The notes under the pieces: model-generated
The model's database searches: none
The model's input: only the letters and a program-made list of their open reading frames with translations
What the model was told of the DNA's origin: nothing
From: a bacterium
Lineage (GTDB): Bacteria > Auribacterota > UBA3054
Assembly (NCBI GenBank): GCA_017649705.1
Contig: JAGCGH010000081.1
Span: forward strand, 206-64,205
Length of the DNA stretch: 64,000 bases
Reading direction: 5' to 3'
Shown here: piece after piece, positions 1,449-62,119 of the stretch
Numbering within the stretch: the first letter of the stretch is position 1
Layout of the letters: every line of letters begins with the position of its first letter
Translations under genes and position numbers: made by a program

Positions 1449-1526
1449 ACTTCTTTCTCCTTATTGTTAAACGTTTAACTGTGATGGCGGGCGCTACCCG
1501 CCTTTTGCTTTGGTGAACTAAAAATA

Positions 1527-3020: not shown

Positions 3021-3091
3021 ATGTTGGATTGTTAACTAGCCACATTCTACCAAACCTCACTCCGATAAGTCAAGTAAGCGCCTGGGGAAGG

Positions 3092-5647: not shown

Positions 5648-5659
5648 ATGTATCTCCTT

Positions 5660-8245
5660 TTAGTATTTTAATTCAAGATCGGAAAAACGCACCTTCATTT
5701 CTTTGCCCTTGTCCGGCGGAGGCAGGACGACAGGATTTGCGCTGCCGGCTTTGAAGTTCAGCGTAACTGTGTCATCGCTCCCCTCTTTCGTTACGACAGC
5801 TTCTTCAACTACGCCGCCTGGGAAGAAGCGGTAAACGTCCCTGCCCCTGTAGCCGTAGGCGCTCTCGCTGGTTTTGCCCAAGCCGCAGCCGGCGACGAGG
5901 AGTTTACCCTCCTTGTCGTCCTCGTCAAGCAGAGCCTGGCGTCTTTTGGTCTCCGCGGCGGCGATATCCTTGGGTTCGGCCGTGGAAGCTTCTATCACAA
6001 GGTCTCCCGGCAGCGTGTCGGCAAGGGCTACGGTAAGCGTGCGCTTTTCGGGGTCGAATTCCGCCTGAACGTCCTGATCCTGGAACTTCACCGCCGTATA
6101 GGAGGCCACGTTGCGCAGTACGACCTTAACGGGGCGCGCGGAATATTTCCCCTCGAAGTCGCCCTTCGTTTCCCCTATAGTTATGAAATGCGTGCAGCCT
6201 TCGCGCTGGTATGAGAAGGGCGTGCGGGCGCATTTGCCTTCCTGATAGGCTTTGCTGAGCCCGTCGTCCTCGTAAAGCTCGCTCTCCCCTGTACCGTCGT
6301 CTTCGGTCGGGAAGATCATTACCGTCAGTTCTTTGGGCAGATCGGCCATTCTTTTCCCGGTCTGGCCCAGGACCAGAGGATAGCCTTTTTTCACAAAGAG
6401 CGGGAATTCGTAGAGGTCGGCGCTGACCAGGGAAAAGCCTTTGTCATAACTTTCGCCCGTAAAATATTGCGCCCAGCCGTCCGAGGGAAAATAAACGACC
6501 TTCGTAGAGACAAACGATTTTCCCCTGCCGTGCTCGGCTATAGGCGCCGCCAGCATGCCGTCGCCCAGGAGGAATTCCTGCGGTGTTACGTAAGCCTGCT
6601 CGTCCTCCGGGAAATCATAATAAAGAGGTCTCATGAAAGGCAGCGACTCTCTGTAAAGCTTTTCCGCCGCGGTGTAGATGTACGGCATAAGGACGGACCT
6701 CAGGTCGAAACTGCCCCGCGCCGACTTCTGGGCAAAGTCCTGCCAGAACCAGGGGCGCTTGTCAATGTTGCCGCAGGAATGGAGCCGGAAGACCGCCGAA
6801 ATGGCGCCGAACTGCAGCCAGCGGGCGTAGATCTCTCCATCTTCCCCGGCGAAGAAGCCGCCCAGGTCATGCGACCAGTAGCAGCAGCCAGCGTTGGCGG
6901 AAACGGGCGTCATGCAGATCTGGAACTGCAGCTCCTCCCAAGTGCCGCCGGTATCACCGGAAAATTCCACGGGATGCTTCTGGTCGCCAAGGCCTCCCCA
7001 GCGCGCCAGCGACAAGCCTCTTCTTTCCGGCCTGTCGGTGTATTCGTAATAAAGCTTGTTTAGCCAGGACCAGTGGCTCAAACCGGGAACGCCCGTGACG
7101 TACGGCACGAGATAATCCTGCTGCCAGTCCACCCACCAGACGTCCGCGCCCTGGGCTTCCAAGGGATCGTGGGCGTACTTGAAGTAGGCGTCCATGTATT
7201 TTTTGCTGCCGTCCTGGAAGGGAATGATCCTTCCTCCCTCGGTGCTCTCGCCCATGGCCTGCATGAATTCCTCGTAGCAGAAATCGGTGTCGCGGATGCC
7301 GTCGGCGGGATGCACGTTCAGGGCGATGTGCAGTCCCTTTCCCCGCATTTCCTTAAGAAGATCCTCCGCGTCCGGCAAAAGCTCCCTGTTCCAGGTCCAG
7401 CCCGTCCAGCCCAGAGTCCCGCAGTGGCCAAGGCCTTTGTTGCCTTTCCTGTCGTGCCACTCCATATCCCAGACCAGCACATCCAGAGGATACCCTTGCT
7501 CTTCATATCCCTTCACGATATTGCGGTAATCTTCGGAAGTGTACATGGCGTGGCGTGAATACCAGGAACCCATGGCGAACCTGGGCGGCAGGGGTATCTT
7601 TCCCGAAACGTCGCAGAGTTCCTCCAATCCAAGCCTGTAATCTTTGCCGTAGCAGAAAACATACATGTCCTGGCCCAGCGGGCCGTATTCCCTCACCTTT
7701 GGATTTCCGTCCGCCATAACAAGCGCAGTCTTGGTGTCGTCGATGACGCACCAGCCTTCCTTTTTCATGAACCCTTCGTCAAGCTTGCACGCATCCCAGC
7801 TTCCGTCCAGCGTGGCGATGGATCCGCCCAGGTCCTCCAGGTCGGGCACGCCGTTGTCGCCGTGCCAGCAGCCGTAGCCGGGAACGTCCACACCGTAGTT
7901 GCCGCCGTCCATGCGGCCCAAAAAGCGGTGACGGTCCACGAAGAAAATGAGTTTCTTTGTCTTGACGAGGATCTGATCGTCCTTGTCTTCTATCTCAAAA
8001 TCGAAGAAATCCATTTCGCGCTTTTTGGCGAACATGCTGGGTTCGTCGTGGAAGGATCCCTTCTCCACCCTCATGCAGCCTTCGTTCAAGATGGATAGCC
8101 TCAAGACGCCGTCGATGATCATGGGATTGGCTTTCGGCGTGGGCTTGACCGCAGTTGAGACTTCCGTTCCGGCCGGGGTTCCTTCCGCGAAGGACAAAAG
8201 CGAGAAAAAGACCGCCGCAAGGGCGATGACATAAGTTTTTTGCAT
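5660..8245 (-). CDS. Glycoside hydrolase family 31-like glycosidase, tandem paralog
   Basis: 861 aa with a signal peptide. Motifs DVLVWDMEWHDRK and WSHDLGGFFAG. It is co-linear with the upstream paralog, including the C-terminal tail LLVAGCGLGKTSES…RFFPGG. Confidence 0.65.
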   Translation of the reverse strand: MQKTYVIALAAVFFSLLSFAEGTPAGTEVSTAVKPTPKANPMIIDGVLRLSILNEGCMRVEKGSFHDEPSMFAKKREMDFFDFEIEDKDDQILVKTKKLIFFVDRHRFLGRMDGGNYGVDVPGYGCWHGDNGVPDLEDLGGSIATLDGSWDACKLDEGFMKKEGWCVIDDTKTALVMADGNPKVREYGPLGQDMYVFCYGKDYRLGLEELCDVSGKIPLPPRFAMGSWYSRHAMYTSEDYRNIVKGYEEQGYPLDVLVWDMEWHDRKGNKGLGHCGTLGWTGWTWNRELLPDAEDLLKEMRGKGLHIALNVHPADGIRDTDFCYEEFMQAMGESTEGGRIIPFQDGSKKYMDAYFKYAHDPLEAQGADVWWVDWQQDYLVPYVTGVPGLSHWSWLNKLYYEYTDRPERRGLSLARWGGLGDQKHPVEFSGDTGGTWEELQFQICMTPVSANAGCCYWSHDLGGFFAGEDGEIYARWLQFGAISAVFRLHSCGNIDKRPWFWQDFAQKSARGSFDLRSVLMPYIYTAAEKLYRESLPFMRPLYYDFPEDEQAYVTPQEFLLGDGMLAAPIAEHGRGKSFVSTKVVYFPSDGWAQYFTGESYDKGFSLVSADLYEFPLFVKKGYPLVLGQTGKRMADLPKELTVMIFPTEDDGTGESELYEDDGLSKAYQEGKCARTPFSYQREGCTHFITIGETKGDFEGKYSARPVKVVLRNVASYTAVKFQDQDVQAEFDPEKRTLTVALADTLPGDLVIEASTAEPKDIAAAETKRRQALLDEDDKEGKLLVAGCGLGKTSESAYGYRGRDVYRFFPGGVVEEAVVTKEGSDDTVTLNFKAGSANPVVLPPPDKGKEMKVRFSDLELKY

Positions 8246-8508: not shown

Positions 8509-8538
8509 GCGCGCGGGAATTTTTCCCGCGCGTTTTTT
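8509..8538. terminator. Intrinsic terminator-like hairpin flanked by an A-run and a T-run
   Basis: gcgcgcgggaa-ttt-ttcccgcgcg followed by tttttt. It lies immediately downstream (in gene sense) of the duplicated gene-3' remnant, so it is likely the native terminator of the metallopeptidase gene. Confidence 0.45.
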
Positions 8539-8659
8539 ATTCCGCCTCGATGGTGAATTCGAAAAGTTCGCTGGCCCTGATGCCGTCCAGGACGTAGAGC
8601 GCCTTTTTGATCTTCTCCCCTTTCTTGGCGGGAACTTTGTATTCCTGCACTCTTCCGCT
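8537..8659. repeat. Left copy of a 123-bp perfect direct repeat (= last 41 codons plus stop of the gene 13007..15781)
   Basis: 8537-8659 is identical to 13007-13129 (ttattccgcctcgatggtgaattcgaaaagttcgctggccctgatgccgtccaggacgtagagcgcctttttgatcttctcccctttcttggcgggaactttgtattcctgcactcttccgct). Confidence 0.9.
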
Positions 8660-8712
8660 CTTAAATCCGGAAGCATACCAGTTGTTGGCGTCGTGCCAAT
8701 AGTACAAAAGTG
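8537..8712 (-). pseudogene. 3'-terminal gene remnant of the HExxH metallopeptidase (diverged paralogous segment + perfect repeat)
   Basis: Minus-strand translation gives …SFPLLYYWHDANNWYASGFKSGRVQEYKVPAKKGEKIKKALYVLDGIRASELFEFTIEAE*. The intact gene reads …GQPLLYYWHDAGNWYATDFRSGRVQEYKV…. Segment 8660-8712 is only ~70% identical to 13130-13185 and is AT-richer. Stop codons lie upstream of it. Confidence 0.65.
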
Positions 8713-9262
8713 GAAAACTGTATATTGAATTAACTACGCGTATATATCTAGTGTTTTCAGCATGCTAGGAAATGCAATTAAATACCAAAAAGCATAGTTA
8801 TATTGATTTTTCCGGCATCAATTTTAAATCTCTAATGCTAACACATTATATTCATTCCAATCCGTCATTTGACGAAACAATAATAACAGAATAATAACTT
8901 AAAAAGACGTGATAAATTCAAATTTTGTCCATCCATTTTTAAAAGTTGGTCTATAATGAAATGATAGAGTTTCGTTACAATAATAGAAATGCTTAATTCT
9001 TCCCTTAGTCCCCTATTATTAACGGCCTCAAGATTATTGCCTCGGATGAAAACAAACAAGCATTTTGCCATAACCCACCTGAATAATACTTCTCTTTAAT
9101 CTCTTTTGAAGCAACATTCTATCTTTTAGAAATAAAAAAAAGCGCAACGCAGTTATCATGTAAATGCGCCCATATTTTTTCTTTTGCCTATTTCAGCTCC
9201 ACTTAAATTAACTAAGTTCAATTCGTTTTTTAAAAAACAATTAAAAAAATGAAAAGGTTTGA

Positions 9263-10099
9263 TTATTTGATATTGATTTTATCGTAAAAAGGTAAATCGT
9301 TTCTAAAATATAATTTTGAATCTACTCCATAATCGGATTTTTCACAAGCAAAATATCTTAAAGACAATAAATGCTTTTCATACGAATTAGCAAACTCAAC
9401 AATTTTATTAAATAAAATTTGATTAATATTTTTTTTTAGTAAATTCTGATGCTTATCAATATTACCAAAGATTCCATAATAATGTTTAATTGTTGAAAGC
9501 AATCCTTTTTCGTTAATTGAAACGCCACTAAACACCTCATTTTCATCACGATTGTTATCGTAATAATATAAACGTATTTTTCGGCCAGCAAAACATTGCG
9601 TATCTATTTCAACAGCTATCCTTGCGGGAACACCTATATTCTTTGCCGTTTTAAAAATTGACATATTTTTAGGGAAGGCAAATTCAATTAAATATTCTAA
9701 ATATCTGAACGGATTAATACGATTAAAATCGACTTGCGGTTCTAAGCGAAGTGTGAAATCAGAATCTGAAGATTTAAAAGATGGATCAATACTAAAAGGG
9801 CATTCATTATATGAAAATACATGTTTCGCCAATGAATTAGAAAACAAATTTAAATAATAATTGTATATTTCTAACCGTCTTTTTGTTTGCTCATATGGGC
9901 CTAAAGAAATTGGTTCTATTAAATAAACGGCAGTCGATTTTATATAGCCATTTGCTAAAGAAAAACCAATAAATTCAACTTCGTAAATACCAGGAATTTT
10001 GCTAGCCTCAATACGTTTCAAGAGAGAACTAATATCCAACTGATTATCAACAAGATTCATTAAACAATCGTATATTCTTTCTTTATCTTTTATAATCAC
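9263..10099 (-). CDS. Hypothetical protein (278 aa), island-encoded, no recognisable motif
   Basis: Clean ORF with AT-rich codon usage and a K/N/Y/I-rich protein. It lies at the downstream end of the radical-SAM gene string in the same orientation. Confidence 0.45.
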   Translation of the reverse strand: MIIKDKERIYDCLMNLVDNQLDISSLLKRIEASKIPGIYEVEFIGFSLANGYIKSTAVYLIEPISLGPYEQTKRRLEIYNYYLNLFSNSLAKHVFSYNECPFSIDPSFKSSDSDFTLRLEPQVDFNRINPFRYLEYLIEFAFPKNMSIFKTAKNIGVPARIAVEIDTQCFAGRKIRLYYYDNNRDENEVFSGVSINEKGLLSTIKHYYGIFGNIDKHQNLLKKNINQILFNKIVEFANSYEKHLLSLRYFACEKSDYGVDSKLYFRNDLPFYDKINIK

Positions 10100-10179
10100 A
10101 GAAAAACTTCTCCATTAAATTATTCAGATATTGTGATTTTATAACTTTATATTTTGTTCTCAACATTAACTAAAAAGGA

Positions 10180-11364
10180 TTATCTAAAAAGTGCTTGATT
10201 CCCTATAGCCGAGGAAGCATCATCGCATAATGATAAATCTGATAATAGCTTTTCTGCTTCGTCTCTTGATAAATCTGACAAAAAACCTCGTGATAATCCT
10301 AGCAATGAAAGCTTTTGTTCTATATGAGACCAAATTATTTTATTAGTAATACATTCTTCTTCAAACCAACCAAAAAGCTTAGAATGAAGACAACCAGCGA
10401 TACAAAGTGTCCGCCATTTGCACGTGCCACACTTAGAAAAGCAAGGTTCTTTTTCAACTAAAAAGGATATTTTTTTCTTATTTTCAATTACTTGTTCTAC
10501 TGTGTCAGAATACACATTACCTATTGAATATGAATCAGAATCAAAACGACCACAAGGAAGCAATTCGCCATTATGTGCAATACTTAAAAAAGTATCAGAA
10601 CACCTACCATTGATGCTACATAATTTAGAGATGTTCATTAAATAAGCAAGAACTGCCCCTTGAACGGTTTCAACATTTGCAGGGTGCTGATCATTTAACC
10701 AAATATCAAAAAGTTCACAAACCCCATTTGCGTACTGCTCAGCAGTAACTGATTCAGCCATAAAGCAAGTTCCTTTATAGGAAGTCGGAAACATTCTATT
10801 AAGCCTAAACGGGATTCCCAACGCCTTAAACCATTCATAAAGTTCATTTATTCTTCCAACATTGCTGGCTGTCATCATAGTTATAGCCCCTAAATTTAAG
10901 CCAGCTTGCTTTAATGACATTGCTCGTTTTAAAATAATATCAGAAGCATCATCTCCATTTGGGAACAACCGATAATTAGATTGGAAATCCAAAGAAAAAC
11001 CTATTCGTGAACCAAACGACTCTTTAAGAAGCGGTATGAAATCATCTGAAGCCAAAGTTAGATTAGTCTGAATCTGATTTCTAACACCGATAGATAATTC
11101 ATTAAATTTTTTAGTATAATAATTTACACATTCCTTTATAAAGTCCAACCCCATCAAAAGAGGTTCACCACCATGCCAAATCACAGTAACTTCTTTAACA
11201 TTTAACTTACAGCAATAAGACATTATCCAGTCAAAACTTTTTTTTGCCTCGTCAATATTCATCATTCCATCAAAATCGTTTCGATCACGAGCGGCATAAC
11301 AATAACGGCATCTTAAATTGCAACGACTTGTGGGTTTAAAAATTATTGATAATTGATTAGCCAT
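10180..11364 (-). CDS. Radical SAM / SPASM-domain enzyme (anSME-like or peptide-modifying maturase family)
   Basis: CxxxCxxC motif KPTSRCNLRCRYCYA near the N-terminus. The C-terminal SPASM-like cysteine cluster is CSINGRCSD…LPCGRFD…CFSKCGTCKWRTLCIAGCLH. The track ORF starts at 11433; the start MANQLSII (about 11364) is more likely, giving a short overlap with the upstream gene. Confidence 0.8.
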   Translation of the reverse strand: MANQLSIIFKPTSRCNLRCRYCYAARDRNDFDGMMNIDEAKKSFDWIMSYCCKLNVKEVTVIWHGGEPLLMGLDFIKECVNYYTKKFNELSIGVRNQIQTNLTLASDDFIPLLKESFGSRIGFSLDFQSNYRLFPNGDDASDIILKRAMSLKQAGLNLGAITMMTASNVGRINELYEWFKALGIPFRLNRMFPTSYKGTCFMAESVTAEQYANGVCELFDIWLNDQHPANVETVQGAVLAYLMNISKLCSINGRCSDTFLSIAHNGELLPCGRFDSDSYSIGNVYSDTVEQVIENKKKISFLVEKEPCFSKCGTCKWRTLCIAGCLHSKLFGWFEEECITNKIIWSHIEQKLSLLGLSRGFLSDLSRDEAEKLLSDLSLCDDASSAIGNQALFR

Positions 11365-11377
11365 TGTTTTTGTCCAA

Positions 11378-12508
11378 TTATAAAATTTTAGATATTTTCT
11401 TTGAGTAACAATCCTCAAAACTTTCAATTTCATTTAATTGTAGATACTGTTGAACATAAGAAATTGTTTCAAGTGTATATTCACTTCTATAGCCGCAACA
11501 GGACTCGTGACAATTTTTATTAGGTTCACCCCAACACGAACCGGAACAAATATTATTTATATAACTATCACACTCCCTACAAACGTTCAATACTATCTGA
11601 TCATGTTTCCGCTTATAAGCTTCAATAATATCTTGTGGAGCACTAAAATAATAATTTCCTATTGACATATCAAACTTTCGACAATAACTTAATATTGCTC
11701 CATTCCCACAAATAGACAATTTCCAATAAGGTTCATTAACATCCGTACAACAAAACGGACGCTTGAGAAGAATGGAACGAGCTATTGCTGCAAAATTAGT
11801 AAACTTAAAACTTACTTCGCGCTCTCTAGTATATAAATCAAATAAAGCTATTACATAATCATTATATTCGTCCACAGTCAAATATTGTTCAAGCCTTTTT
11901 CCGTCAGGCGAATGTGCACGATTAACACGAAACATATCCACATGTTTACTATACCAATCATAAAGTTTTTGAGGTGGTTGCAAATCATTTTTTATTAGGG
12001 TACTTACAATTCCAACGCGAATATCCTTAGTATGTAAATAGTCTATTGCACGTTCAATATCAATAGCCGCGTTGCGACCATTTACATATTTCCTTGCTAA
12101 CCCATATGGTTCAAATGATCCGCCTATAAATCCATCAAAATATTCTTTGATTAAAAAACAAATCTTTTCGTTAACCAAAGTGAGATTGCTTTGCAACCTA
12201 TTAATAAATTTAATATCTGATCCTTCAAAACATCGTCTTTGCTCATTCAAAGCATTTTCAAGATTTGCTTCTCCATATAGCAACGGCTCACCGCCAAACC
12301 ATGTAAAATCAATAAATTTAATATCTAAAAAGTTACAGTATTTTATTAGCCAGGTATATGCTGCTTTAAAATCAAAAATACTCATATCGCCATAAGATGT
12401 GTCTGATACATAACAATAATCACACCTCATATTACAGCGATGTGTTGGCGATATGAGCACTGTCAATTTATCTGATGACACTATGCCTGAGAAGTCCAAG
12501 AACCGCAA
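11378..12508 (-). CDS. Radical SAM / SPASM-domain enzyme, second tandem copy
   Basis: CxxxCxxC motif ISPTHRCNMRCDYCYV. The C-terminal Cys-rich SPASM-like region is CCTDVNEPYWKLSICGNG…CRECDSYINNICSGSCWGEPNKNCHESCCG. The start is a TTG directly after an in-frame TGA, so the exact start is uncertain. Confidence 0.8.
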   Translation of the reverse strand: MRFLDFSGIVSSDKLTVLISPTHRCNMRCDYCYVSDTSYGDMSIFDFKAAYTWLIKYCNFLDIKFIDFTWFGGEPLLYGEANLENALNEQRRCFEGSDIKFINRLQSNLTLVNEKICFLIKEYFDGFIGGSFEPYGLARKYVNGRNAAIDIERAIDYLHTKDIRVGIVSTLIKNDLQPPQKLYDWYSKHVDMFRVNRAHSPDGKRLEQYLTVDEYNDYVIALFDLYTREREVSFKFTNFAAIARSILLKRPFCCTDVNEPYWKLSICGNGAILSYCRKFDMSIGNYYFSAPQDIIEAYKRKHDQIVLNVCRECDSYINNICSGSCWGEPNKNCHESCCGYRSEYTLETISYVQQYLQLNEIESFEDCYSKKISKIL

Positions 12509-12630
12509 TCAATATATTCTTTATATGAGATTGAAGAACTAGGTTTGGAGACTCTATGAAGAGCTATCCCAATGATTCTTTGTAATGCCGGTATATTTTT
12601 TGCGGCGATAATTACTTCTTTCTTTTCCAT
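12481..12630 (-). CDS. Candidate RiPP precursor peptide (49 aa), not in the ORF track
   Basis: Minus strand: AAAGAGGAG, then 7 nt, then ATG. Translation: MEKKEVIIAAKNIPALQRIIGIALHRVSKPSSSISYKEYIDCGSWTSQA*. It overlaps the first 28 nt of the radical-SAM gene in a different frame. Hand-translated from the sequence. Confidence 0.35.
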   Translation of the reverse strand: MEKKEVIIAAKNIPALQRIIGIALHRVSKPSSSISYKEYIDCGSWTSQA

Positions 12631-13006
12631 TTTAAATCTCCTCTTTGCCCTTTAAATTATTAAATCTCGTGTTTACCAAAGGGCTTGATAAACATCTTCC
12701 TTCCTTTCTATTAATGAAAAACTTTTTCATCAATATAAAAGAAAAAATAAGTTACATATATTATATCAAAAAAAGAAGTTAAAAGGAAATAACCCGTTGA
12801 TTTTTTGAATTGAAATAGGATTAAAATATTATTAGCAAGACATTTATATAGGTAGTCGGGTCTAAAAGCGTACATGTTTTTCGTATATACTTTAAAATTT
12901 AATGTGGATCTTAAAAAATATGATGATTTAAATAATAGTTGTGCTTAAAAGTTAATTGTATATCTGTGTCAACATCTCTTCCTCTTTCACTAATTAGTTT
13001 TCCTAC

Positions 13007-13129
13007 TTATTCCGCCTCGATGGTGAATTCGAAAAGTTCGCTGGCCCTGATGCCGTCCAGGACGTAGAGCGCCTTTTTGATCTTCTCCCCTTTCTTGGCG
13101 GGAACTTTGTATTCCTGCACTCTTCCGCT
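13007..13129. repeat. Right copy of the 123-bp perfect direct repeat (the actual 3' end of the intact gene)
   Basis: Identical to 8537-8659. Confidence 0.9.
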
Positions 13130-15781
13130 GCGGAAGTCCGTGGCGTACCAGTTCCCCGCGTCGTGCCAGTAGTATAGGAGAGGCTGACCTTCCGGATCGT
13201 AGCTCTTCCCGGCGTCCAATTTGACTATCGTTCCGGCCTTGGCCTTGAAATAATTAGTCTCCAGCAAAGCCACGGGCGCCCTGTTGAAATTGCGGCATTC
13301 CTCCGGGATCAGGGTCTCCTTCAAAGCCGGACGCTTTGTCGTCCTAAGCTGCGTCCTTATTTCGTAAACGCCCCGCATCCGATCGCCCGCGAAAAACTGC
13401 TCGTTGAACTCGGACAGGGGCAGCAGATGGAAATCCACGTCATCCGCGGTCTCGATCTTGATCAAAAGCAGCCCTTCCACGTGCCAGACAGAAGGCGTGC
13501 AGGGCGCGTCTTTGGTGGCGTCGTTCTCGTCTGTGGTCATGCCGAAGGGATTCCAAACGTAAGTCCTGCCGTCGAAGCGGTCGGTGTAGACAGAATCCCA
13601 ATTCTTGTCGGTGTCCGTCGGGATGAGATATTTGCCTTCCTTGTCCGTGTAGCCTTTGAATTTGGGAATGTCCGCGAAATATTTGTCCGCGAAAGCGTTT
13701 ATCTTCCCGTGGGAAACGTGGTAAACATAGACCGCCGCGTCCCTCAAAGGCTCGTCATTCACGTCGTAGATCTTCAGTATGTTTTCCGAGATCGGAATGA
13801 ACCTTCCCTGCGTCCCCCAGAAGCGCGGCCCGCGGTAGCCCGAGCAGTAGACGATCTTCCCGGCGTTGGAGCGGTTGATCCACATGTGGCAGCCGCTCAT
13901 CAAGGGCGTGTAGGCCGAGCCGCAGGGCACGTTCTCCGCGGAACTGTACATAATGTCGGATCCGAACTTCGGCATTCTGCTTCCCCCGGCGTAGTATTTC
14001 CCCTCTTTATCCTTCAATAAAACGTTGTGCCACCGGACGGGGTAAGAGTAGACGTCAGGCAGCGCCAGGCAGGTGTGGCCTAATTCGTGCACCACGGAGG
14101 CGTTCAGGGAGGAGAAGTGCGGCGCGCTGGCCTGATGCGAGGCGCGGTCGTTGGGATTGTCCGTTATGGGGAAGCCGCCGTCGCGGTATTCCTCCATTTT
14201 GTTGTAAACGTTGTCCTTGTCCTTTTCCCAATAATGGTAAACAAGATTGTCGATCCTGTACTTCTCCTTGATGCCATCCGGGCAGATATCGGGATACTTG
14301 GTGTCCAGAAGCAGCGCGTCAAGTTTCAGCTTGTGCCCCGCCACCCAGTCGAACATGGAGAAAGACCCCACGCAGTTCATTTTCCTTTCCCGGAAATAAT
14401 TCGTCGTGACCATGGGCGAAAAAGCGAACCACAGGGGCCTCGCGTCGCACCACTCGCTGACCTTGTTGTTCACCAAACACAAGTCGTCATCCAGCTTGAC
14501 CTCGGCGTTCATCAGCAAACTTTCTTTGGGGAAAGTCCAGATGAAACTGTATTTCCTGATCTGCTGGGGCAGGAAAGGTTCCAGCTCCACCACCCTTTTG
14601 CAAACGGGGGCCTTTTCGTCCCCCACCCAGAAGCGCAGCTTCAGTCCTGCGGGAGAAGTAATGGGGCCGTAGTTGGCCACGTGCACCACGGAGGTCACCT
14701 GGTCCCCCGGCGCGATCTTGGTTTTCAGATCCTTGTAGCTGTAGCGTGGCAAGAGTTCTATGAACTGCACCGTCATGTCAGGCTTTTCCGGCGAGATCAC
14801 TTCCGTCGCGAACTCCGCCTCCTTCCCGCGGTAGGAGGCCTTCACCTTGACCTTCCCTTCCGCAAGCCCCTTTATGGCCGCCGGGATCTTTTCATCCGGA
14901 GCGGCGCACCCGTTGTCCGTCGACCACTGGATGAAAGGCTTGGCGTCGAAATACGACCAGTTGCCGTAGGCGTTCATCTCGTCCGTCACCATTTCGAATT
15001 TGCCGTTCCTCTTCGCCCTTAAACCAAATTTCTTCGAATATCCCAAAAGTATCCTTTTGTCCGCGTGGATCCCCCAGGGCTCAGGCGTGATCTCGATCTC
15101 CTCAGCAGGGAAGGTCCTGAAGTATTCGGTGTAAACGGCTTTCAAAAGCGCGCCGTTATCCAAAGTCGAACGCCTGCCCAGTTTTTCGTTCCTGAAAACA
15201 AGATCCTTCATTTCGCCGTTATCATGATGGAATTCAATGCTCCCGGGTATCTCCCCCGGATCGAAGAAAGCGTCCTTGCAGGGCACTTCCCCCCCTATGC
15301 ACTCCTTGTCGAAAAACAGCGGCAGTCCGCAGGGAACGTCCTCGTCGTTCACGAACCAGGAAAAAGCGATGTGGTGCCACTCCCCCGCTTTGAAAGTAAC
15401 CTTGCTTCTGGTGGCAGCTTTTTTCTCCTTGGATACGGAAGCGATCTTCAGAAGACCTTCCTTGGTCTTCGAGAGAACCATCCCGTTCTCCGGTTTGCCC
15501 ACGACCAAGATCAAATGCTCGTTCCCGTCATCCGAAGCAAAATTTGGCTTGAACCAAAACGAGACAAAGCCGAACCTGGGCGAGATCTCCAATCCATCGG
15601 CATAGTCTATGTCGGAAGCGCGCTTAAGATCTTTGTTCCCGTCCAGGGTAGTGTCGCCCGTCCGCACTTCCTGCGCTCCCGGAAGAGGCGCGGAAGAGAA
15701 CGGCCAAAAAGTATAGACCGCAGCATAAAGATTCACTGCCGCCAAAACAGAAACGCAAAGCAAAATTCTCTTCATAAACAT
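13007..15781 (-). CDS. Secreted zinc metallopeptidase-like protein (HExxH)
   Basis: 924 aa with a signal peptide (MFMKRILLCVSVLAAVNLYAAVY). HELGH is present in …SLNASVVHELGHTCLALPDVYSYP…. The family is not assignable from sequence alone. The stop codon at 13007-13009 is the island junction. Confidence 0.55.
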   Translation of the reverse strand: MFMKRILLCVSVLAAVNLYAAVYTFWPFSSAPLPGAQEVRTGDTTLDGNKDLKRASDIDYADGLEISPRFGFVSFWFKPNFASDDGNEHLILVVGKPENGMVLSKTKEGLLKIASVSKEKKAATRSKVTFKAGEWHHIAFSWFVNDEDVPCGLPLFFDKECIGGEVPCKDAFFDPGEIPGSIEFHHDNGEMKDLVFRNEKLGRRSTLDNGALLKAVYTEYFRTFPAEEIEITPEPWGIHADKRILLGYSKKFGLRAKRNGKFEMVTDEMNAYGNWSYFDAKPFIQWSTDNGCAAPDEKIPAAIKGLAEGKVKVKASYRGKEAEFATEVISPEKPDMTVQFIELLPRYSYKDLKTKIAPGDQVTSVVHVANYGPITSPAGLKLRFWVGDEKAPVCKRVVELEPFLPQQIRKYSFIWTFPKESLLMNAEVKLDDDLCLVNNKVSEWCDARPLWFAFSPMVTTNYFRERKMNCVGSFSMFDWVAGHKLKLDALLLDTKYPDICPDGIKEKYRIDNLVYHYWEKDKDNVYNKMEEYRDGGFPITDNPNDRASHQASAPHFSSLNASVVHELGHTCLALPDVYSYPVRWHNVLLKDKEGKYYAGGSRMPKFGSDIMYSSAENVPCGSAYTPLMSGCHMWINRSNAGKIVYCSGYRGPRFWGTQGRFIPISENILKIYDVNDEPLRDAAVYVYHVSHGKINAFADKYFADIPKFKGYTDKEGKYLIPTDTDKNWDSVYTDRFDGRTYVWNPFGMTTDENDATKDAPCTPSVWHVEGLLLIKIETADDVDFHLLPLSEFNEQFFAGDRMRGVYEIRTQLRTTKRPALKETLIPEECRNFNRAPVALLETNYFKAKAGTIVKLDAGKSYDPEGQPLLYYWHDAGNWYATDFRSGRVQEYKVPAKKGEKIKKALYVLDGIRASELFEFTIEAE

Positions 15782-15866: not shown

Positions 15867-18581
15867 ATGATAGAAGTCCTGAAAACCTTGCCTCCCCGCC
15901 GCCAAGTCATAAGAGACCTGGCAGATGAACTCCTGTCCAGACACCGGACCGGAAGGCTCCTGGACTTATCCGAATATACGCTTCTGCTTCCCGGCCAGCG
16001 CGCCGGCAGAAGGTTCCTGGAGATACTATCCGAGATCTGCGCCAAAGAAAAGCTGCTCTTCCTGCCCCCGAAGACTGAGACCGACGTCTCTTTCCTGCGC
16101 GCCGTCGCCAGAGACTTCTCCGGCCCTTCCCTCGCCTCCCCCTTCGAAGTCCGGGACGTCTGGCGGAAAGCCCTCGACGCCGAACGCGGCCGTCTGGAAA
16201 AAGTCTTTGCCTTGAGATCCGAGGGAACGGACATCCCGGAAAGCGTGCTCATAAGCTTCAGCGAGCGTTTAGAGGAACTGAGAAAAGATCTGGCTTTGAA
16301 TCTTGTCAGCTGCCGCAAGGTCAGGGAAGCGCTCGCCGACCTGGCCGGGGAAAGGGAAAGCGAACGCTGGGAGGAATTGGAAGAACTTTTCGCGCGCTAT
16401 CTCGGGGAACTTGAGAAAAGCGGGCTGAAAGACGAGTGCCTATCTCTTGAAGATTGCCTTAATTCACCGCCCGGCGAAAAAAGAAAGTTGTATGTCATCG
16501 GCTACCGCGAAAGGATTCCTCTTCTGGAAGCGCTCTACGAAAGGCCGGACTTCGACGTCAGCGTCGTGGCGGTCGGCGAAGGCTGGTTCGACGAAAAAGG
16601 GCTTCTCAAAAATGACGCTGCCTTCCCTCCCCTGGCCGCCAAGCCTGAGGCGGTGAAGATCTTTGCCGATCCGACGGCGGAGGCGGAAGGAGTCTTCGCG
16701 AAACTTAGAGAGCTTTCCCCCAACGGAGAACTGTCCTGCGGCGACGTGACCATAGCGACCCAGGACGGCGATCTTGTTCCTTTCTTGAAAGAGTTCGGAA
16801 GCGCCGCCAAAGTCCAGATACACGAAGCCTCCGGACGGCCTTTCGCGGAAACGGAAGCAGGCTTGTTCCTGCGATCCCTCGCGGAATTGTTGGAAAAAGC
16901 TGACGTCTTCGCCTACTTGAGGGCGCTGCGCCTGCCCTGCCTGGAACGGGCCGTGACGAAAGGCCATCTCGAGGACTTCCTGCCCGGCTGGCTGGACAGT
17001 CTGGAAAAAACGTTGGGCGAATATCCCAAGGACTGGATGTTCGCCAAGACCGGCAACGAAACGGCGAAACAAGTTTTCGATTGGCTGGAAGCGCTCATCG
17101 CGCCCTGGCGTCAGGAAAAGTCGAAACAAGAATGGCTGTCGGTTTTCAGGGAAACGCTCTTGAAGATTCTGCCCGGCCAAACCCCCGAGGACGCCTCGGC
17201 CTGGGAAAAATTGGCGGAGTACGCCGAAGCCTTGGCTTCCTCGAGAGTCCGGGAAGGGAAAATTACCGGGCTCGCCTTCCTGAAACGGCTCTCCAAAGCC
17301 GCGCGCAATATTCATATCGCTTCCCAAACTGAAACGAACGCCCTTGACCTTACGGGCTGGCTGGAAGTTTTCCTCGACGACTCACCGGTCATAATTATCT
17401 GCGACCTTAACGAAGACATACTCCCGAAGAGAGAAGCCGCCGACCTTTTCCTGCCGGACCAGCTCAAAACGCGGCTGGGCATGACGAATTGCGAAGACAT
17501 AATGAGAAGAGACCGCTATTTTTTGAGGACCCTCGCGGACCCCGCCGCGGAGACCTGCCTCTTCTCCTGCAAGCAGTCACTGAACGGCTTCTTCCGGGAT
17601 CTTTCCCCGCTGCTTTGCGACGAGAGCGAGAGCGTTCGCGACAGGGCCGAATATATCAGGAAGTTCTACTCCGAAAGTTCGGCCGGTGAAAAAAGTCTCT
17701 TTCCTTCTTTCTTCCTGCCCAAGCCCCCGGGGGAAGAACTCAGCCTTCATATCAGGGAAAAGCTGGAGCGAAGCCTCGGGCGCGTCAGCGTGTCAAGGCT
17801 CAACGATTTCCGGGAATGTCCTTTCAAGTTCGCCCTGCGTCAGCTGGGAGTGGATGGAAAAGACAGGATCTACAACGAACTGCCTCCGCTTTTTTTGGGC
17901 AACATCGCCCACGAGGTGATGGAGCTTTTCGCCAAAGCGAAGATCGAAGGCCGCGTGGGCTCCGATCCGGAAGAATGCGAAAAATTTCTGGCCGCATCCC
18001 TGGAATCCGTAAAACGCCGGGAACTGACCGGTTTTCCGCCCGCCCTGGCGGATTTCCAGCTTGATCAGCTAAGCAGAAAATTCGGGCCCTTCTCTTTGGA
18101 GCACTGCCGGCGCGAAGAGGAAGGCTGGCGGATAGTACAGGCGGAGGAGAAGCTGGAAAAGGATATTGACGGGATAGTCCTCACCGGGCGTCTCGACAGG
18201 CTGGATCAGAAAGGCGAAAATGAATTCTGCGTCGTGGACTACAAGACCGGATCAACCGCGAAAAAGCCAAAAGACCTGGAAGAGGATCTGCAGATGAGCT
18301 CCTACGCCGCGCTACTGGAGGAGCGTTACCCTAAATCCTCCTGGCGCTCCTCCTTCGTGAATTTCAGCGGCGAAAAACGGCAGCCCTGTTTCTATCTCGA
18401 GCGGGAGCTTGAAACGCCCATGATCAGGCTGCGGGCCGTGCTGGCGGATATCCGGGAAAGTTCTTTCGGGAACGTTTACGATCCGAAAAACAAAAGCTGC
18501 GGCAAATGTCCCTACCGTTTCTTCTGCGAAATGTCCGCGGAGGAACGCTTCGCTTCCGTGGAGGAACTGCTATGCCGGTGA
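15867..18581 (+). CDS. addB: AddB/RexB-like PD-(D/E)xK nuclease subunit with a C-terminal Fe-S cysteine cluster
   Basis: 904 aa. C-terminal nuclease region with CPFKFALRQL … DYKTGS … CGKCPYRFFCE. Its stop overlaps the start of the downstream helicase-nuclease by 10 nt. Confidence 0.55.
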   Translation: MIEVLKTLPPRRQVIRDLADELLSRHRTGRLLDLSEYTLLLPGQRAGRRFLEILSEICAKEKLLFLPPKTETDVSFLRAVARDFSGPSLASPFEVRDVWRKALDAERGRLEKVFALRSEGTDIPESVLISFSERLEELRKDLALNLVSCRKVREALADLAGERESERWEELEELFARYLGELEKSGLKDECLSLEDCLNSPPGEKRKLYVIGYRERIPLLEALYERPDFDVSVVAVGEGWFDEKGLLKNDAAFPPLAAKPEAVKIFADPTAEAEGVFAKLRELSPNGELSCGDVTIATQDGDLVPFLKEFGSAAKVQIHEASGRPFAETEAGLFLRSLAELLEKADVFAYLRALRLPCLERAVTKGHLEDFLPGWLDSLEKTLGEYPKDWMFAKTGNETAKQVFDWLEALIAPWRQEKSKQEWLSVFRETLLKILPGQTPEDASAWEKLAEYAEALASSRVREGKITGLAFLKRLSKAARNIHIASQTETNALDLTGWLEVFLDDSPVIIICDLNEDILPKREAADLFLPDQLKTRLGMTNCEDIMRRDRYFLRTLADPAAETCLFSCKQSLNGFFRDLSPLLCDESESVRDRAEYIRKFYSESSAGEKSLFPSFFLPKPPGEELSLHIREKLERSLGRVSVSRLNDFRECPFKFALRQLGVDGKDRIYNELPPLFLGNIAHEVMELFAKAKIEGRVGSDPEECEKFLAASLESVKRRELTGFPPALADFQLDQLSRKFGPFSLEHCRREEEGWRIVQAEEKLEKDIDGIVLTGRLDRLDQKGENEFCVVDYKTGSTAKKPKDLEEDLQMSSYAALLEERYPKSSWRSSFVNFSGEKRQPCFYLERELETPMIRLRAVLADIRESSFGNVYDPKNKSCGKCPYRFFCEMSAEERFASVEELLCR

Positions 18582-21505
18582 TATCTAACAGCGCCATCAT
18601 CGCCTCCGCCGGCACGGGCAAGACTTTCCGCCTGGCCAAACGCTATATCAAGCTCCTGAGCCTGGGCGTCCGCCCCTCGGAGATAGTGGCGCTCACTTTC
18701 ACCAACGCCGCGGCCCACGAAATGCTCCAGCGCATCCTGCTGGATCTGGCTAACGCCGTCCTCAGCGAAAAACACCTGCGGGATCTTTACGCTTCCGCCG
18801 GTTTGGACGGCGTCCCCAGCAAGGAGGAATGCGAAAAATGGCTGGAGCTTCTCATAAGGGAACTGCCTTTTGCCAAAATCTCCACCTATGACAGTTTCTT
18901 CTACAAGCTGCTGCGCTGTTTCGCTTTCGACCTCGGTTTGGATCCCACCGTGGAGATCCTTGACAAAAAGTTCCAAAACCAATTTCTGAAAGACGCCCTG
19001 GACGAACTTCTGGTCCTGAAAAGCAGGGATCCGGCCAGACTTTTCTCCCTTCTGGCCTCGCTGAGCGAAGACAACGAGCTGCGCCGAGCCACCAAAACGA
19101 TCCTGGAGGCGCTTGGGAAGCTGGCTGAACAGAGCCTCTCCATTCCTCCGGAAACCGTGGCGAGAATACGGCTCAGCTCCCCTGTGTCAGACTTCGAGCC
19201 GAAGGAGCTGCACACTTCTCTTCCTAAGAAAAAAAGCGTTCTGGAAACGCTTTTCAACGCTGTTTCCAAAGCGGCGGCTACCGGGAAATGCTCCGATCTT
19301 ACCAGTAAAAATTCCCAGGTCAGAAAGCTCCTCGAGGACGGCAAGCCGGACTGGTCCAATATCGACGATTTGATGCTGACAGAGGAGTCGCTGGAGGATC
19401 TGAAAAACATGCTGCGCTACCTCGGCACCCGCGAGATCATGAAAAGGCGCGGCGAAACGGCGGCGGCCTACGAGCTGGCCCGGGATTTCCAGAAAGTCCT
19501 GCTGGCCCTTAAATTCGAGCGGAATCTCTTCACCTTCTCGGACGTCTCCCTGGCCGTCTCGAAGCTTCTGGCGATCCCGGAGATCGGACTGGAGGTTTAT
19601 TTCCGTCTCAACACCGGCATCAGCCATTTTCTGATCGACGAGTTCCAGGACACCTCCTGGCAGCAATGGGAGATCATGAGCCCCCTGGCGGATGAAGCGA
19701 TCTCAGACGATGAAAAAAGTCTTTTCGTGGTCGGCGACGTCAAGCAATCAATCTACAGCTGGCGCGGCAGCTCCCCGGAGATCTTCAACAAATTCCTCGA
19801 ACGTTACGAGGAGGGATTCGAAACGGAACAGCTCTTCAAAAGCTTCCGCTCCGTTCCGGATGTCCTGACCATGGTCAACCGGATCTTCGCCCTGCCCTGT
19901 TTCGCCGACTGGGTCAAGGATGTCCGCTACCGGGAGCATATTTCCGCTGTAGGCGGATCAGGCTTCGCTTCCATAAGTTTCGTCGAGGACTCGAAAGAAA
20001 TTTTTGAGGCGGCGGTCAAACCTTTGGAGGAGATCGCTCCCTGGAAACGCGGCCTTTCTTCCGCCGTCCTTTGCCGGAAAAACGACCAGGTGGAAGAGGT
20101 GCTCGCGCTGCTGAAAGAACGGGGCATCCCCTGCGCCACGACCTCCAACGTCACCATAAAGGAATATCCCGAGACCAGGATCTTGCAGGCCTTTTTGCGC
20201 TGCCTGTCCGATCCCGGCGACACGCTTTCCCTCTTCATTCTTAGGAATTCTCCCCTGAGGTCGCTCTTCCCGGAAGACGACCTCGGGGAAACGCTTTCCG
20301 GCTGGAGAAGGCGGCTTCTCAGGGACGGCGTTTTCGAAACGGTCTCACGCCTGCTGGCGGCCTGGAAGGAGGACGCCGATCCCGCCGAAGCACGGAGCGT
20401 TTCCCGGAATCTTTCCGACTTCATGCAGGCGGTCGCCGCCTACAAGGGTTGTCCGAACGACTTGGAAGGCCTGATGGATTACCTTGAAAACTACGAGCAC
20501 CCCCGCGAGAAAGTCGACACCGGGAAAGTTATCGTCTCCACTATCCACACGGCCAAAGGCCTCACCTACGACATGGTCGTGGTGCCGGTAAAAGATCTTC
20601 CTCTCAGCGAGATCAAACCGGGCAGCTATCTTAAGGGCGAGATCCCTTCCAAAGGCTTCGAGCGGCCGCGAGTGTCGACTTTCATCAAGAAATGCAACAA
20701 GGTCGCCTATTTCGCTTCCGAAGAATATTACGATCTGGAAAGAGAGCTTCTTGACAAAAATTACCTGGAAAACTGCAATCTTTTCTACGTGGCCCTTACC
20801 AGGGCTTCCAAAGCGCTCTATATCGTCTGCGACAAGTCAAAATCCGAATTAAAGTTCAATTCCCATCTGCAGGCGCTGGAAGGCTACGTCGGAAAGAGCG
20901 ACTGGTACGAAAAAGAAGCGTCTGAAAATACTCCCGCCGAAGGGCAGGCGGAAACCTTCCTCTCACCTGTCTTCAACGGCAGGCTGACCAGAAGGCGCCA
21001 AACTGTCTCGCCTTCTCTAATCGCTCACGAAGGAAGCGAAGGGGAAGCGGCGGCTGGCTTCGCTGCGCCGGACCTGGGAAGGGAAGCGGCCATGCGGCGC
21101 GGCAGCGCTATCCACGCTTATTGCGAAAGCATCCTATGGCTCGACGGCGAGATCTCGGAACCCGCGGATCTTCCCAAGGAGGAGGCCGCGGAAGCCAAGG
21201 CGGTCATTGACGCTTACATCGCCAGGCATCCCGAGAACGTTTTCGTAAAGCCCGCGGAGGAATGCGAAGTCAGGCGCGAGATGCCCTTCATGTTCCTCAG
21301 GGATGACAAGCTTATAAAAGGCATCATGGACAGAGTGCATTTCTTCCCATGTGCGCAGGATCCAAAGAAGATCGTCGTTTACGATTTCAAGACCGGCAGC
21401 GAGCACGAGGAGAATGAGAAGCAGATCGACCTTTACGTGAGCGTTTTGAAGGAGTCCTTCGGGATAGAGGACGTCAGGGGCGAGCTGATCTACCTGGAGA
21501 AATAA
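18572..21505 (+). CDS. addA: AddA/RexA-like UvrD-family helicase with a C-terminal PD-(D/E)xK nuclease
   Basis: Walker A motif SAGTGKTF a few residues after MPVISNSAIIA. UvrD-like motifs are LIDEFQDTS, VGDVKQSIYSWRGS and LYVALTRASKALYIV. The C-terminal nuclease is …VYDFKTGS…ELIYLEK. The ATG at 18572 overlaps the addB stop (ATGCCGGTGA). Confidence 0.7.
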   Translation: MPVISNSAIIASAGTGKTFRLAKRYIKLLSLGVRPSEIVALTFTNAAAHEMLQRILLDLANAVLSEKHLRDLYASAGLDGVPSKEECEKWLELLIRELPFAKISTYDSFFYKLLRCFAFDLGLDPTVEILDKKFQNQFLKDALDELLVLKSRDPARLFSLLASLSEDNELRRATKTILEALGKLAEQSLSIPPETVARIRLSSPVSDFEPKELHTSLPKKKSVLETLFNAVSKAAATGKCSDLTSKNSQVRKLLEDGKPDWSNIDDLMLTEESLEDLKNMLRYLGTREIMKRRGETAAAYELARDFQKVLLALKFERNLFTFSDVSLAVSKLLAIPEIGLEVYFRLNTGISHFLIDEFQDTSWQQWEIMSPLADEAISDDEKSLFVVGDVKQSIYSWRGSSPEIFNKFLERYEEGFETEQLFKSFRSVPDVLTMVNRIFALPCFADWVKDVRYREHISAVGGSGFASISFVEDSKEIFEAAVKPLEEIAPWKRGLSSAVLCRKNDQVEEVLALLKERGIPCATTSNVTIKEYPETRILQAFLRCLSDPGDTLSLFILRNSPLRSLFPEDDLGETLSGWRRRLLRDGVFETVSRLLAAWKEDADPAEARSVSRNLSDFMQAVAAYKGCPNDLEGLMDYLENYEHPREKVDTGKVIVSTIHTAKGLTYDMVVVPVKDLPLSEIKPGSYLKGEIPSKGFERPRVSTFIKKCNKVAYFASEEYYDLERELLDKNYLENCNLFYVALTRASKALYIVCDKSKSELKFNSHLQALEGYVGKSDWYEKEASENTPAEGQAETFLSPVFNGRLTRRRQTVSPSLIAHEGSEGEAAAGFAAPDLGREAAMRRGSAIHAYCESILWLDGEISEPADLPKEEAAEAKAVIDAYIARHPENVFVKPAEECEVRREMPFMFLRDDKLIKGIMDRVHFFPCAQDPKKIVVYDFKTGSEHEENEKQIDLYVSVLKESFGIEDVRGELIYLEK

Positions 21506-60816: not shown

Positions 60817-60890
60817 AGGCGTGTGGTGTAATGGTAACACTTCGGATTCTGGTTCCGCCATTCTAGGTTCGAGTCCTGGCACGCCTGCCA
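60817..60890 (+). tRNA. tRNA-Gln (anticodon CTG)
   Basis: Cloverleaf read by hand. The acceptor AGGCGTG/CACGCCT shows the Gln-like unpaired 1:72. D-arm is GTGT-AATGGTA-ACAC, the anticodon loop is TTCTGGT, and the T-arm is CTAGG-TTCGAGT-CCTGG. Discriminator G and an encoded CCA. Confidence 0.8.

Positions 60891-62043: not shown

Positions 62044-62119
<76 letters not shown>

Follow-up and report, generated by a model that had tools for sequence, protein, structure and literature searches.

The question raised by this locus is whether a very short open reading frame (ORF), lying directly 5' of a radical S-adenosylmethionine (radical-SAM) gene in a 64,000-nucleotide stretch of bacterial DNA (assembly GCA_017649705.1, contig JAGCGH010000081.1, positions 206 to 64,205; hereafter the window, whose numbering is used throughout), encodes the substrate of that enzyme or is a chance frame in AT-rich DNA. 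An earlier sequence-only reading had proposed a 49-residue precursor peptide here, a frame that was missing from the supplied ORF track. By comparing homologous loci, we found that the 49-residue ORF is a real, conserved protein-coding gene, and the small-ORF call proved correct. The ORF is conserved in homologous clusters and its C-terminal core is under purifying selection, in keeping with the proposal, and its product is very probably the precursor of a radical-SAM-modified peptide of the kind that is made by the ribosome and altered after translation (RiPP). In the following, rSAM1 denotes the radical-SAM gene adjoining the peptide gene, rSAM2 the second radical-SAM gene of the cluster, and p278 a 278-residue protein encoded with them.

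The frame (minus strand, 12630 to 12481) comprises 49 codons and a TAG stop, and its translation, MEKKEVIIAAKNIPALQRIIGIALHRVSKPSSSISYKEYIDCGSWTSQA, agreed exactly with that given in the earlier reading. The ribosome-binding site noted there was also found: the Shine-Dalgarno-like sequence AAAGAGGAG, containing GAGGAG, occupies 12646-12638 on the minus strand and is followed by 7 nucleotides (ATTTAAA) and the ATG at 12630. An alignment of the precursors showed purine-rich GGAG or AGGA elements in front of most of the orthologous peptide ORFs. In the public annotation, the ORF is a 'hypothetical protein J6U76_04635 [bacterium]'. Several other ORFs of 45-54 residues occur nearby, as is expected by chance in such an AT-rich stretch. 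Since the length of the ORF alone is therefore unremarkable, conservation was the deciding test. A query with the 49-residue peptide itself returned the identical sequence as the sole match; a word-index search cannot reach diverged homologs of such a peptide, and these were located by way of the neighboring rSAM1.

When the DNA upstream of rSAM1 orthologs was inspected, a homologous small ORF was present directly 5' of rSAM1 in 18 distinct loci of 35-59% guanine plus cytosine (GC) content (including L001, L003, L077, L078, L080, L081, L083, L084, L086, L089, L159, L161 and L162), a count that covers all recovered rSAM1 orthologs with upstream DNA on the contig. The conservation upstream of radical-SAM/SPASM homologs that the sequence-only reading had suggested looking for was thus observed. 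A hidden Markov model (HMM) was built from 14 aligned precursors, and four further loci were retrieved after it had been built. When their 775 ORFs were scored with the HMM, the frame immediately 5' of rSAM1 ranked first in all four loci: L168 (E = 2.5e-24; peptide ending in ...KEYIDCGSWTFQA), L169 (E = 1.5e-17; a KEYIDCGSW-type core as in the subfamily of the window, cut by the contig end), and L166 and L167 (E = 0.035 and 0.071, respectively; both peptides of the form ...VPALKKIL...CGWGETDxWEHREDSHSYYVEHYSDYSD). Outside the family, the HMM matched nothing below E = 1 among approximately 35,000 ORFs of all fetched loci, more than 140 of which contain other, more distant radical-SAM/SPASM genes. 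No Pfam or NCBIfam model matched the window peptide or seven of its relatives, and no second precursor copy was found elsewhere in the window.

The C-terminal part of the peptide is strikingly constant among its closest relatives. The putative core, YKEYIDCGSWTSQA (residues 36-49; 12484..12525, minus strand), whose boundary was placed from conservation, follows the subfamily pattern K[EK]Y[IW]DCG[SG]WTxQ[AC], in which K37, Y39, D41, C42, G43, W45, T46 and Q48 are invariant. This one core type is common to eight loci with GC contents from 35% to 53%, and L168 and L169 add two more. The eight are the window (...SYKEYIDCGSWTSQA), L001 (...SYSCIGGKEYIDCGSWTSQA), L003 (...CWGGKEYIDCGSWTAQA), L078 (...SYKEYIDCGGWTVQA), L162 (...ACIGGKEYIDCGSWTTQA), L080 (...SYKKYIDCGSWTTQC), L081 (...WGCKEYWDCGSWTWQA) and L077, which has a core of the same type as the window. 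Across 13 core codons, 181 differences fell on the third position, as compared with 49 on the first and 34 on the second; 139 of the differing codon pairs were synonymous and 53 non-synonymous. Alternative codons were used for each of the core residues K, Y, D, C, G, T and Q. This predominance of third-position and synonymous changes indicates purifying selection on the protein.

More distant relatives revealed a different pattern. Peptides accompanying rSAM1 orthologs at 35-47% identity retain an N-terminal xPAL[QKD]RI[IV]..A[LI], while their C-termini differ: ...EWHTDAHTDSGGGWHTDAWQG in L084 and L086, ...EGWHTDAWKK in L159, ...EGWHTDAHN in L089, ...CGWGESDAWEHSDAYREHSYYVEG in L161 and ...CWFHDSGSGPCTDTWHSDHSDYSDYSDHSDYRD in L083. 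Across the subfamilies, the core types comprise KEYIDCGSWTxQA, WHTDAW, GWGE[ST]DxWEH and [HY]SD repeats, and an aromatic-x-[ST]-D-x-aromatic element (WHTDAW, ESDAW, TDTW) recurs in those other than the subfamily of the window; peptide lengths in the family range from 29 to 91 residues. A fixed N-terminal motif joined to switching, aromatic- and Asp-rich C-termini is the architecture of a leader-core precursor. In the window peptide, the leader motif conserved in the alignment of the 14 precursors is IPALQRIIGIAL (residues 13-24; 12559..12594, minus strand), which is the presumed recognition element. The split into leader and core postulated in the sequence-only reading is therefore borne out, xPAL[QKD]RI[IV] being common to all subfamilies while the cores swap. 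Its description of the leader as amphipathic was not statistically supported; the hydrophobic moment did peak on the conserved motif, yet the peak was equalled by 16% of shuffled sequences.

The junction between the peptide gene and rSAM1 was also reconsidered. The earlier reading had the rSAM1 frame start at a TTG overlapping the last 28 nucleotides of the peptide ORF. Such a start does exist at TTG 12508, preceded without a gap by an in-frame TGA (12511-12509), and the overlap is 28 nucleotides as described; this is probably not the real junction. The rSAM1 orthologs begin with M-S-x-[DE]-K-L-T-[IV]-L-I-S-P-T-H-R-C, which aligns with the in-frame GTG 12481 in the window, and gene callers also give a 367-residue rSAM1 from that codon. 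On the strength of the ortholog N-termini and the gene calls, rSAM1 probably starts at GTG 12481, with a TAGTG junction in which stop and start overlap by 1 nucleotide. The possibility that the peptide ORF is merely an inner part of the radical-SAM coding sequence, which the earlier reading had considered damaging to its proposal, did not hold, as the TGA closes the rSAM1 frame before the first possible start. In most ortholog loci, the distance from peptide stop to rSAM1 start is about 6-20 nucleotides. These spacings suggest that the peptide gene and rSAM1 are tightly operon-linked in most loci; they do not speak for a 28-nucleotide overlap. L084 is a case of overlap, the stop-free rSAM1 frame there extending over the end of the peptide ORF. 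The precursor gene is 310 nucleotides from rSAM1 in L079 and L085, and approximately 670 nucleotides away in L078. The L078 spacer (4331-5001), as compared with those of L079 (4690-5001) and L085 (3906-4217), contains approximately 360 nucleotides of extra GC-rich DNA, possibly a small insertion element.

We next describe the enzymes that would act on the peptide. The product of rSAM1 (11378..12481, minus strand; 367 residues) is a radical-SAM/SPASM protein with a match to Pfam Radical_SAM, a CX3CX2C motif at residues 16, 20 and 23, and SPASM-type cysteines; eight C-terminal cysteines are invariant, including C301-x2-C304-x7-C312-x3-C316. The product of rSAM2 (10180..11364, minus strand; 394 residues from ATG 11364) matches Pfam Radical_SAM and SPASM, with CX3CX2C at residues 15, 19 and 22, and CX2CX5CX3C at residues 312-325 (C312-x2-C315-x5-C321-x3-C325). 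The two are paralogs of about 29% identity. Because CX3CX2C already begins at residue 15 or 16, there is no room for an N-terminal RiPP recognition element (RRE) domain in either enzyme. An rSAM2 ortholog follows directly after rSAM1 in the family loci with long enough contigs, L159 excepted, where a B12-type radical-SAM gene takes its place. The conserved set is the peptide gene, rSAM1 and rSAM2. The rSAM1 family is rare: only 20 of its proteins were found among 5.8 billion, and 185,579 species-representative genomes (GTDB) contained no rSAM1 relative closer than 23% identity. The relatives of the enzymes found among solved structures were CteB, the triceptide synthase ChlB and the anaerobic sulfatase-maturating enzyme (anSME). 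The best of these for both enzymes is anSME, which aligned over nearly the full length including the SPASM domain (E = 7.8e-28 with the rSAM1 family profile and 6.7e-27 with rSAM2); ChlB gave E = 1e-14 with the rSAM1 profile and E = 2e-4 with the single rSAM1 sequence. Among NCBIfam models, DynA was the best match of rSAM1 (95 bits), followed by anSME, GrrM/OscB, YhhB, AmcB and PapB, while rSAM2 matched anSME best (166 bits) and DynA second (162 bits). Apart from anSME, these characterized relatives are enzymes that act on peptides.

The fourth gene of the cluster, p278 (9263..10099, minus strand), encodes a candidate tailoring enzyme with a predicted ABBA (PT-barrel) prenyltransferase fold. 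Neither p278 nor its 16-member family had a Pfam, NCBIfam or PDB sequence match, the PDB search returning only noise, and p278 matched no known prenyltransferase sequence family (e.g., Pfam PTase_Orf2 and Trp_DMAT). The family is tiny: a word-indexed search gave six matches, and 1.84 billion proteins yielded 18 representatives, all of them lacking a prenyltransferase domain or any other informative domain of Pfam. AlphaFold2 models were obtained from 6 sequences (predicted local distance difference test, pLDDT, 83; predicted template-modelling score, pTM, 0.83) and from 16 sequences (pLDDT 92.6; pTM 0.91). Both showed five beta-hairpins, four with flanking helix pairs. When either model was compared with the PDB using Foldseek, all 50 of the top 50 matches were ABBA aromatic prenyltransferases, including EpzP, NphB/Orf2, FamD1, AmbP1/3, CloQ, DMATS1, IptA, PriB and two enzymes that prenylate peptides, DciF and PirF, with E about 1e-5, template-modelling (TM) scores of 0.45-0.6 and about 10% identity. 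Like the ABBA prenyltransferases (NphB/Orf2, EpzP, CloQ, DMATS, and PirF and DciF of the cyanobactin F family), p278 is thus predicted to form a 10-stranded alpha-alpha-beta-beta barrel. ABBA prenyltransferases bind diphosphate by Lys, Arg and Tyr residues alternating on strands; p278 has conserved, strand-alternating K174, R176, Y178, Y180, K205, Y207, K262, Y264 and R266. It differs from the known enzymes in having no detectable sequence similarity to them, and in TM scores of only about 0.5. These results make the ABBA prenyltransferase fold solid for a prediction, and the family may represent an unrecognized branch of peptide prenyltransferases. That p278 prenylates this very peptide is a tentative proposal, to which we give somewhat less than an even chance.

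Of the known systems with which the cluster can be compared, the triceptides, products of radical-SAM enzymes that form three-residue cyclophanes (XyeB, GrrM/OscB, YhhB, HaaB, HtkB, ChlB), have the same combination of a short precursor with a C-terminal core and an anSME-like SPASM enzyme without an RRE. Their characteristic bond joins an aromatic carbon to the C-beta of the third residue. Triceptide synthases build rings on aromatic-X-X motifs, and none of the motifs named (HTK, HAA, HNR and YDR) has Asp as its third residue (PMC11499958). Triceptide-like aromatic-X-X motifs are present in the window peptide as Y-K-E, Y-I-D and W-T-S, with Y-x-D and W-T-x conserved in its subfamily, and in its relatives as H-T-D, W-H-T and Y/H-S-D, although this is a weak criterion given how common such motifs are. 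Unlike triceptide synthases, the rSAM1 and rSAM2 proteins stay well short of the respective models (GrrM/OscB, 70 and 75 bits against a cut-off of 310; YhhB, 57 and 102 against 445; AmcB, 57 and 95 against 425; XyeB, 29 for rSAM1 only, against 450). Also unlike triceptides, two paralogous maturases serve each precursor here, and the leader and core of the window peptide match no curated precursor model.

A second comparison is with the daropeptides (DarA/DarE and DynA), given the standing of DynA among the NCBIfam matches. DarE and DynA likewise build rings on aromatic-X-X motifs, yielding darobactin and dynobactin. The likeness extends to the small operon and to a Trp-containing C-terminal core, which in daropeptides is cross-linked by the SPASM enzyme; the window core also has a Trp. 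The differences are several. The scores of rSAM1 and rSAM2 are below the cut-offs for DynA (450), DarE (41 and 85 bits against 650) and DarW (32 and 106 against 650). Darobactin- and dynobactin-type cores contain W-x-W-x-K or W-N-S-N-V-H-S-Y-R-F, and neither type is found in YKEYIDCGSWTSQA. Daropeptide systems make two cross-links with one enzyme, whereas the window system has two enzymes; no DarBCD-type transporter is present in the window cluster; and the window belongs to an uncultured bacterium of probable ruminant-gut origin, in contrast to the gammaproteobacterial hosts of daropeptides. The paired radical-SAM system of the His-Xaa-Ser type (HxsB/C) was considered as well and rejected, as its repeats are in a different register and the scores were weak (31 and 62 bits; cut-off, 370). 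Judged from these comparisons, the system would work like a triceptide or daropeptide radical-SAM cyclophane RiPP, yet it misses the family model cut-offs, the daropeptide core motifs and the curated precursor models.

On the precursor reading, we propose the following course of events. The peptide and rSAM1 would be co-translated as an operon, and the N-terminal 33 or so residues would act as a leader, bound directly by both maturases through xPALxRI. In the core, (S)YKEYIDCGSWTSQA, each radical-SAM enzyme would then remove a hydrogen from a side-chain carbon by means of a 5'-deoxyadenosyl radical, and an intramolecular cross-link to an aromatic ring would follow, one per enzyme. Tyr39 and/or Trp45 are the candidate aromatic residues, and Asp41, Thr46/Gln48 or Lys37 the candidate aliphatic partners, given the conserved Y39-x-D41 and W45-T46-x-Q48. 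The product may be a mono- or bicyclic cyclophane-type peptide, similar to the products of the maturases of triceptides, darobactin and dynobactin, which are the nearest characterized relatives. A prenyl group would subsequently be added by p278 where its gene is present (this cluster and three others), probably on an aromatic or nucleophilic side chain, and leader removal and export would depend on genes outside the 4.3-kb island described below. The odds that the modification is an aromatic cross-link are near even, if slightly on the lower side. Parts of this scheme are familiar, namely a precursor, radical-SAM maturases and tailoring; the precursor family, with its conserved pairing of maturases and its sequence-orphan ABBA-fold partner, appears undescribed. 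In the literature, we found no description of the core or leader strings, of RiPPs combining a prenyltransferase with radical-SAM cyclophane formation, or of radical-SAM cyclophane maturases that have an ABBA prenyltransferase as a partner. A bolder extension would make the peptide the first member of a new RiPP class, in which a Y-x-D...W-T-x-Q core is cross-linked twice by two radical-SAM/SPASM enzymes and then prenylated by a sequence-orphan ABBA branch, with at least one undescribed linkage type (e.g., to Asp or Gln), the whole being carried on small mobile islands of uncultured gut bacteria. We regard this extension as less likely than not.

Several observations weigh against the precursor reading or against parts of it. 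The case for expression and modification is sequence-based. All the NCBIfam maturase scores are far below the curated cut-offs, so that the chemistry of those families cannot be transferred. Leaders are usually expected to be conserved and cores to vary, yet the core of the closest subfamily varies less than its leader. As for the tailoring step, the prenyltransferase assignment derives from the predicted fold alone, with no sequence-level link. L001, L077 and L162 have a homolog of p278, whereas none occurs in L002, L003 or L078; L002 and L003 carry instead proteins of 180, 349, 146 and 62 residues and a ThiF-like protein of 417 residues, and L078 carries none. This patchy presence among clusters suggests that p278 is an optional tailoring gene. 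Finally, a foreign, low-GC island carries the cluster, whose expression in this host may be poor, and the island contains no protease or transporter gene.

These last points bear on the rival explanation that survives best, namely that the RiPP family is real while this copy is a silent passenger on a horizontally acquired island, giving no product in its host. The whole cluster is contained in a 4.3-kb island (8714..13006) that stands out in the composition profile, with about 30% GC within a genome of about 56% GC. It is inserted at the 3' end of a host gene of 924 residues and flanked by 177-nucleotide direct repeats, which duplicate that end. The left copy (8537..8713) is what remains of it on that side and is followed by a strong hairpin terminator at 8509-8533, and the right copy (13007..13183) forms the functional 3' end of that gene (13007..15781, minus strand). 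The copies are 89% identical overall, with an identical block of approximately 121 nucleotides at the 3' end of the gene and the rest diverged. Judged by this arrangement, the repeats look like the attL and attR sites of an integrative element, and the silent-copy explanation gains from them as it does from the lack of an integrase, a protease and a transporter in the island. It gains further from a homologous cluster elsewhere (L161, 57-2485; precursor ending in ...CGWGESDAWEHSDAYREHSYYVEG plus two radical-SAM genes), which adjoins a MobA/MobL relaxase and a helix-turn-helix regulator, a context suggesting that the family travels on mobilizable plasmids or elements. Against it stand the intactness of all four ORFs and the strong ribosome-binding sites preceding the peptide gene and the p278 gene. 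Moreover, several metagenomes assembled independently contain the identical island in an unchanged context, which also means that it is not an assembly chimera. No island-free allele was detected, since all contigs carrying the flanking 922-residue protein also carry the island. Promoter-like sites in this AT-rich DNA were at background (24 found as compared with 23 expected), and no terminator was found inside the cluster. On balance, we consider a silent copy unlikely.

The next rival accepts a RiPP precursor but places the chemistry on cysteine, either as a thioether at Cys42 (sactipeptide- or ranthipeptide-like) or as an anSME-like conversion of Cys or Ser to formylglycine, instead of an aromatic cyclophane. 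Cys42 is indeed invariant in the closest subfamily, some members of which have a second Cys (SYSCIGGKEY...), and several distant cores have D-S-G where the window peptide has D-C-G, which recalls the Cys- and Ser-type substrates of anSME. The leading position of anSME among the structural relatives of both enzymes, together with the presence of PapB and CteB among the matches, points in the same direction. Against cysteine chemistry, orthologs of rSAM1 at 35-47% identity are paired with Cys-free cores, for instance WHTDAHTDSGGGWHTDAWQG and EGWHTDAWKK; such cores occur with orthologs at 35-40% identity in L084 and L159, and with partial sequences in L086 and L089, unlike the situation in sactipeptides and ranthipeptides, where core Cys residues donate the sulfur of thioether bridges and the maturases are of the PapB, SCIFF, CteB or RumMC type. 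The Cys-free WHTDAW-type cores in orthologous systems argue against a thioether as the family-wide chemistry. In L159, the residue in question after Asp is Lys, neither Ser nor Cys. The sulfatase motif C/S-x-P/A-x-R is absent from the peptide, no sulfatase gene is present in the island, and, unlike anSME genes, the radical-SAM genes are linked to a small-peptide gene. In addition, the anSME model TIGR03942 gave 166 bits with rSAM2 and 74 with rSAM1 against a cut-off of 349, and the scores with models for sactipeptide and ranthipeptide maturases were also below the cut-offs (PapB, 53 and 95 bits for rSAM1 and rSAM2 against 340; SCIFF maturase, 25 and 66 against 425), PapB, SCIFF and CteB-type models scoring below DynA- and triceptide-type models. 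Taken together, these data make a cysteine-centered modification rather improbable, while the subfamily-invariant Cys42 could take part in an extra link, and the alternation of Cys and Ser after Asp would be compatible with an anSME-like oxidation.

It is very improbable that the 49-residue product is an accessory protein of the radical-SAM enzymes (a chaperone, regulator or immunity factor) and not their substrate. Such a role would agree with the lack of a match to any precursor family model, and with an N-terminal motif conserved like a binding element. A C-terminus that swaps among unrelated aromatic- and Asp-rich repeat cores in peptides of 29-91 residues is instead what is expected of a variable-core substrate; an RRE/PqqD fold would also need about 90 residues, more than the peptide has, and no other conserved candidate substrate ORF was found in the clusters. 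As for the second tiny ORF, which the sequence-only reading had left undecided between a second precursor and noise, the frame does exist (12632..12733, minus strand; 33 residues from TTG 12733 or 32 from ATG 12730, with its stop at 12634-12632, 1 nucleotide before the peptide ATG), but it is almost certainly noise and not a gene, since tblastn found only identical island copies and no homolog in homologous clusters, the precursor HMM did not match it, it has neither leader motif nor aromatic/Asp core, and it runs across the Shine-Dalgarno region that precedes the peptide gene, in a promoter-like spacer of 23-27% GC with chance ORFs of 45-54 residues. A 68-residue ORF at 8865-9071 was likewise rejected as a cluster gene, having no homolog beyond identical islands.

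The sequence-only reading had overlooked the conserved partnership with rSAM2, the prenyltransferase-fold protein and the foreign low-GC island. Darobactin, dynobactin, streptide and the triceptides are examples of peptides modified by radical-SAM enzymes, a group that has been a source of new cross-link chemistry and of some new antibiotic scaffolds. The present family is rare, and neither today's curated models nor the representative genomes that were searched cover it; the four-gene set spans only about 3.4 kb. Its natural core variants (KEYIDCGSWTxQA, WHTDAW and the [HY]SD repeats) would be useful for mapping enzyme specificity, and the sequence-orphan ABBA-fold enzyme may widen the range of peptide prenylation past cyanobactins and lanthipeptides.

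Outside the cluster, the island is flanked by a pair of genes for an AddB/AddA-like PD-(D/E)XK nuclease and a UvrD-type helicase (15867-21505, plus strand), and by a gene for a GH31 glycoside hydrolase (5660-8245, minus strand). The only Rfam matches in the window were two transfer RNA genes (60817-60887 and 62044-62116, plus strand). Accessory genes differ between the clusters of the family, and in L001 two extra radical-SAM genes are present upstream of the precursor (3228-5731). In L157, an unrelated RiPP-like cluster (986-3543) lies approximately 3.5 kb upstream of the family cluster and consists of a PqqD-like protein of 97 residues, a 479-residue radical-SAM protein, a 35-residue ORF (MSQYEKPVIRIVKAIGTVVDKTSPKSSWQCSCGGQ) and a 220-residue radical-SAM protein.

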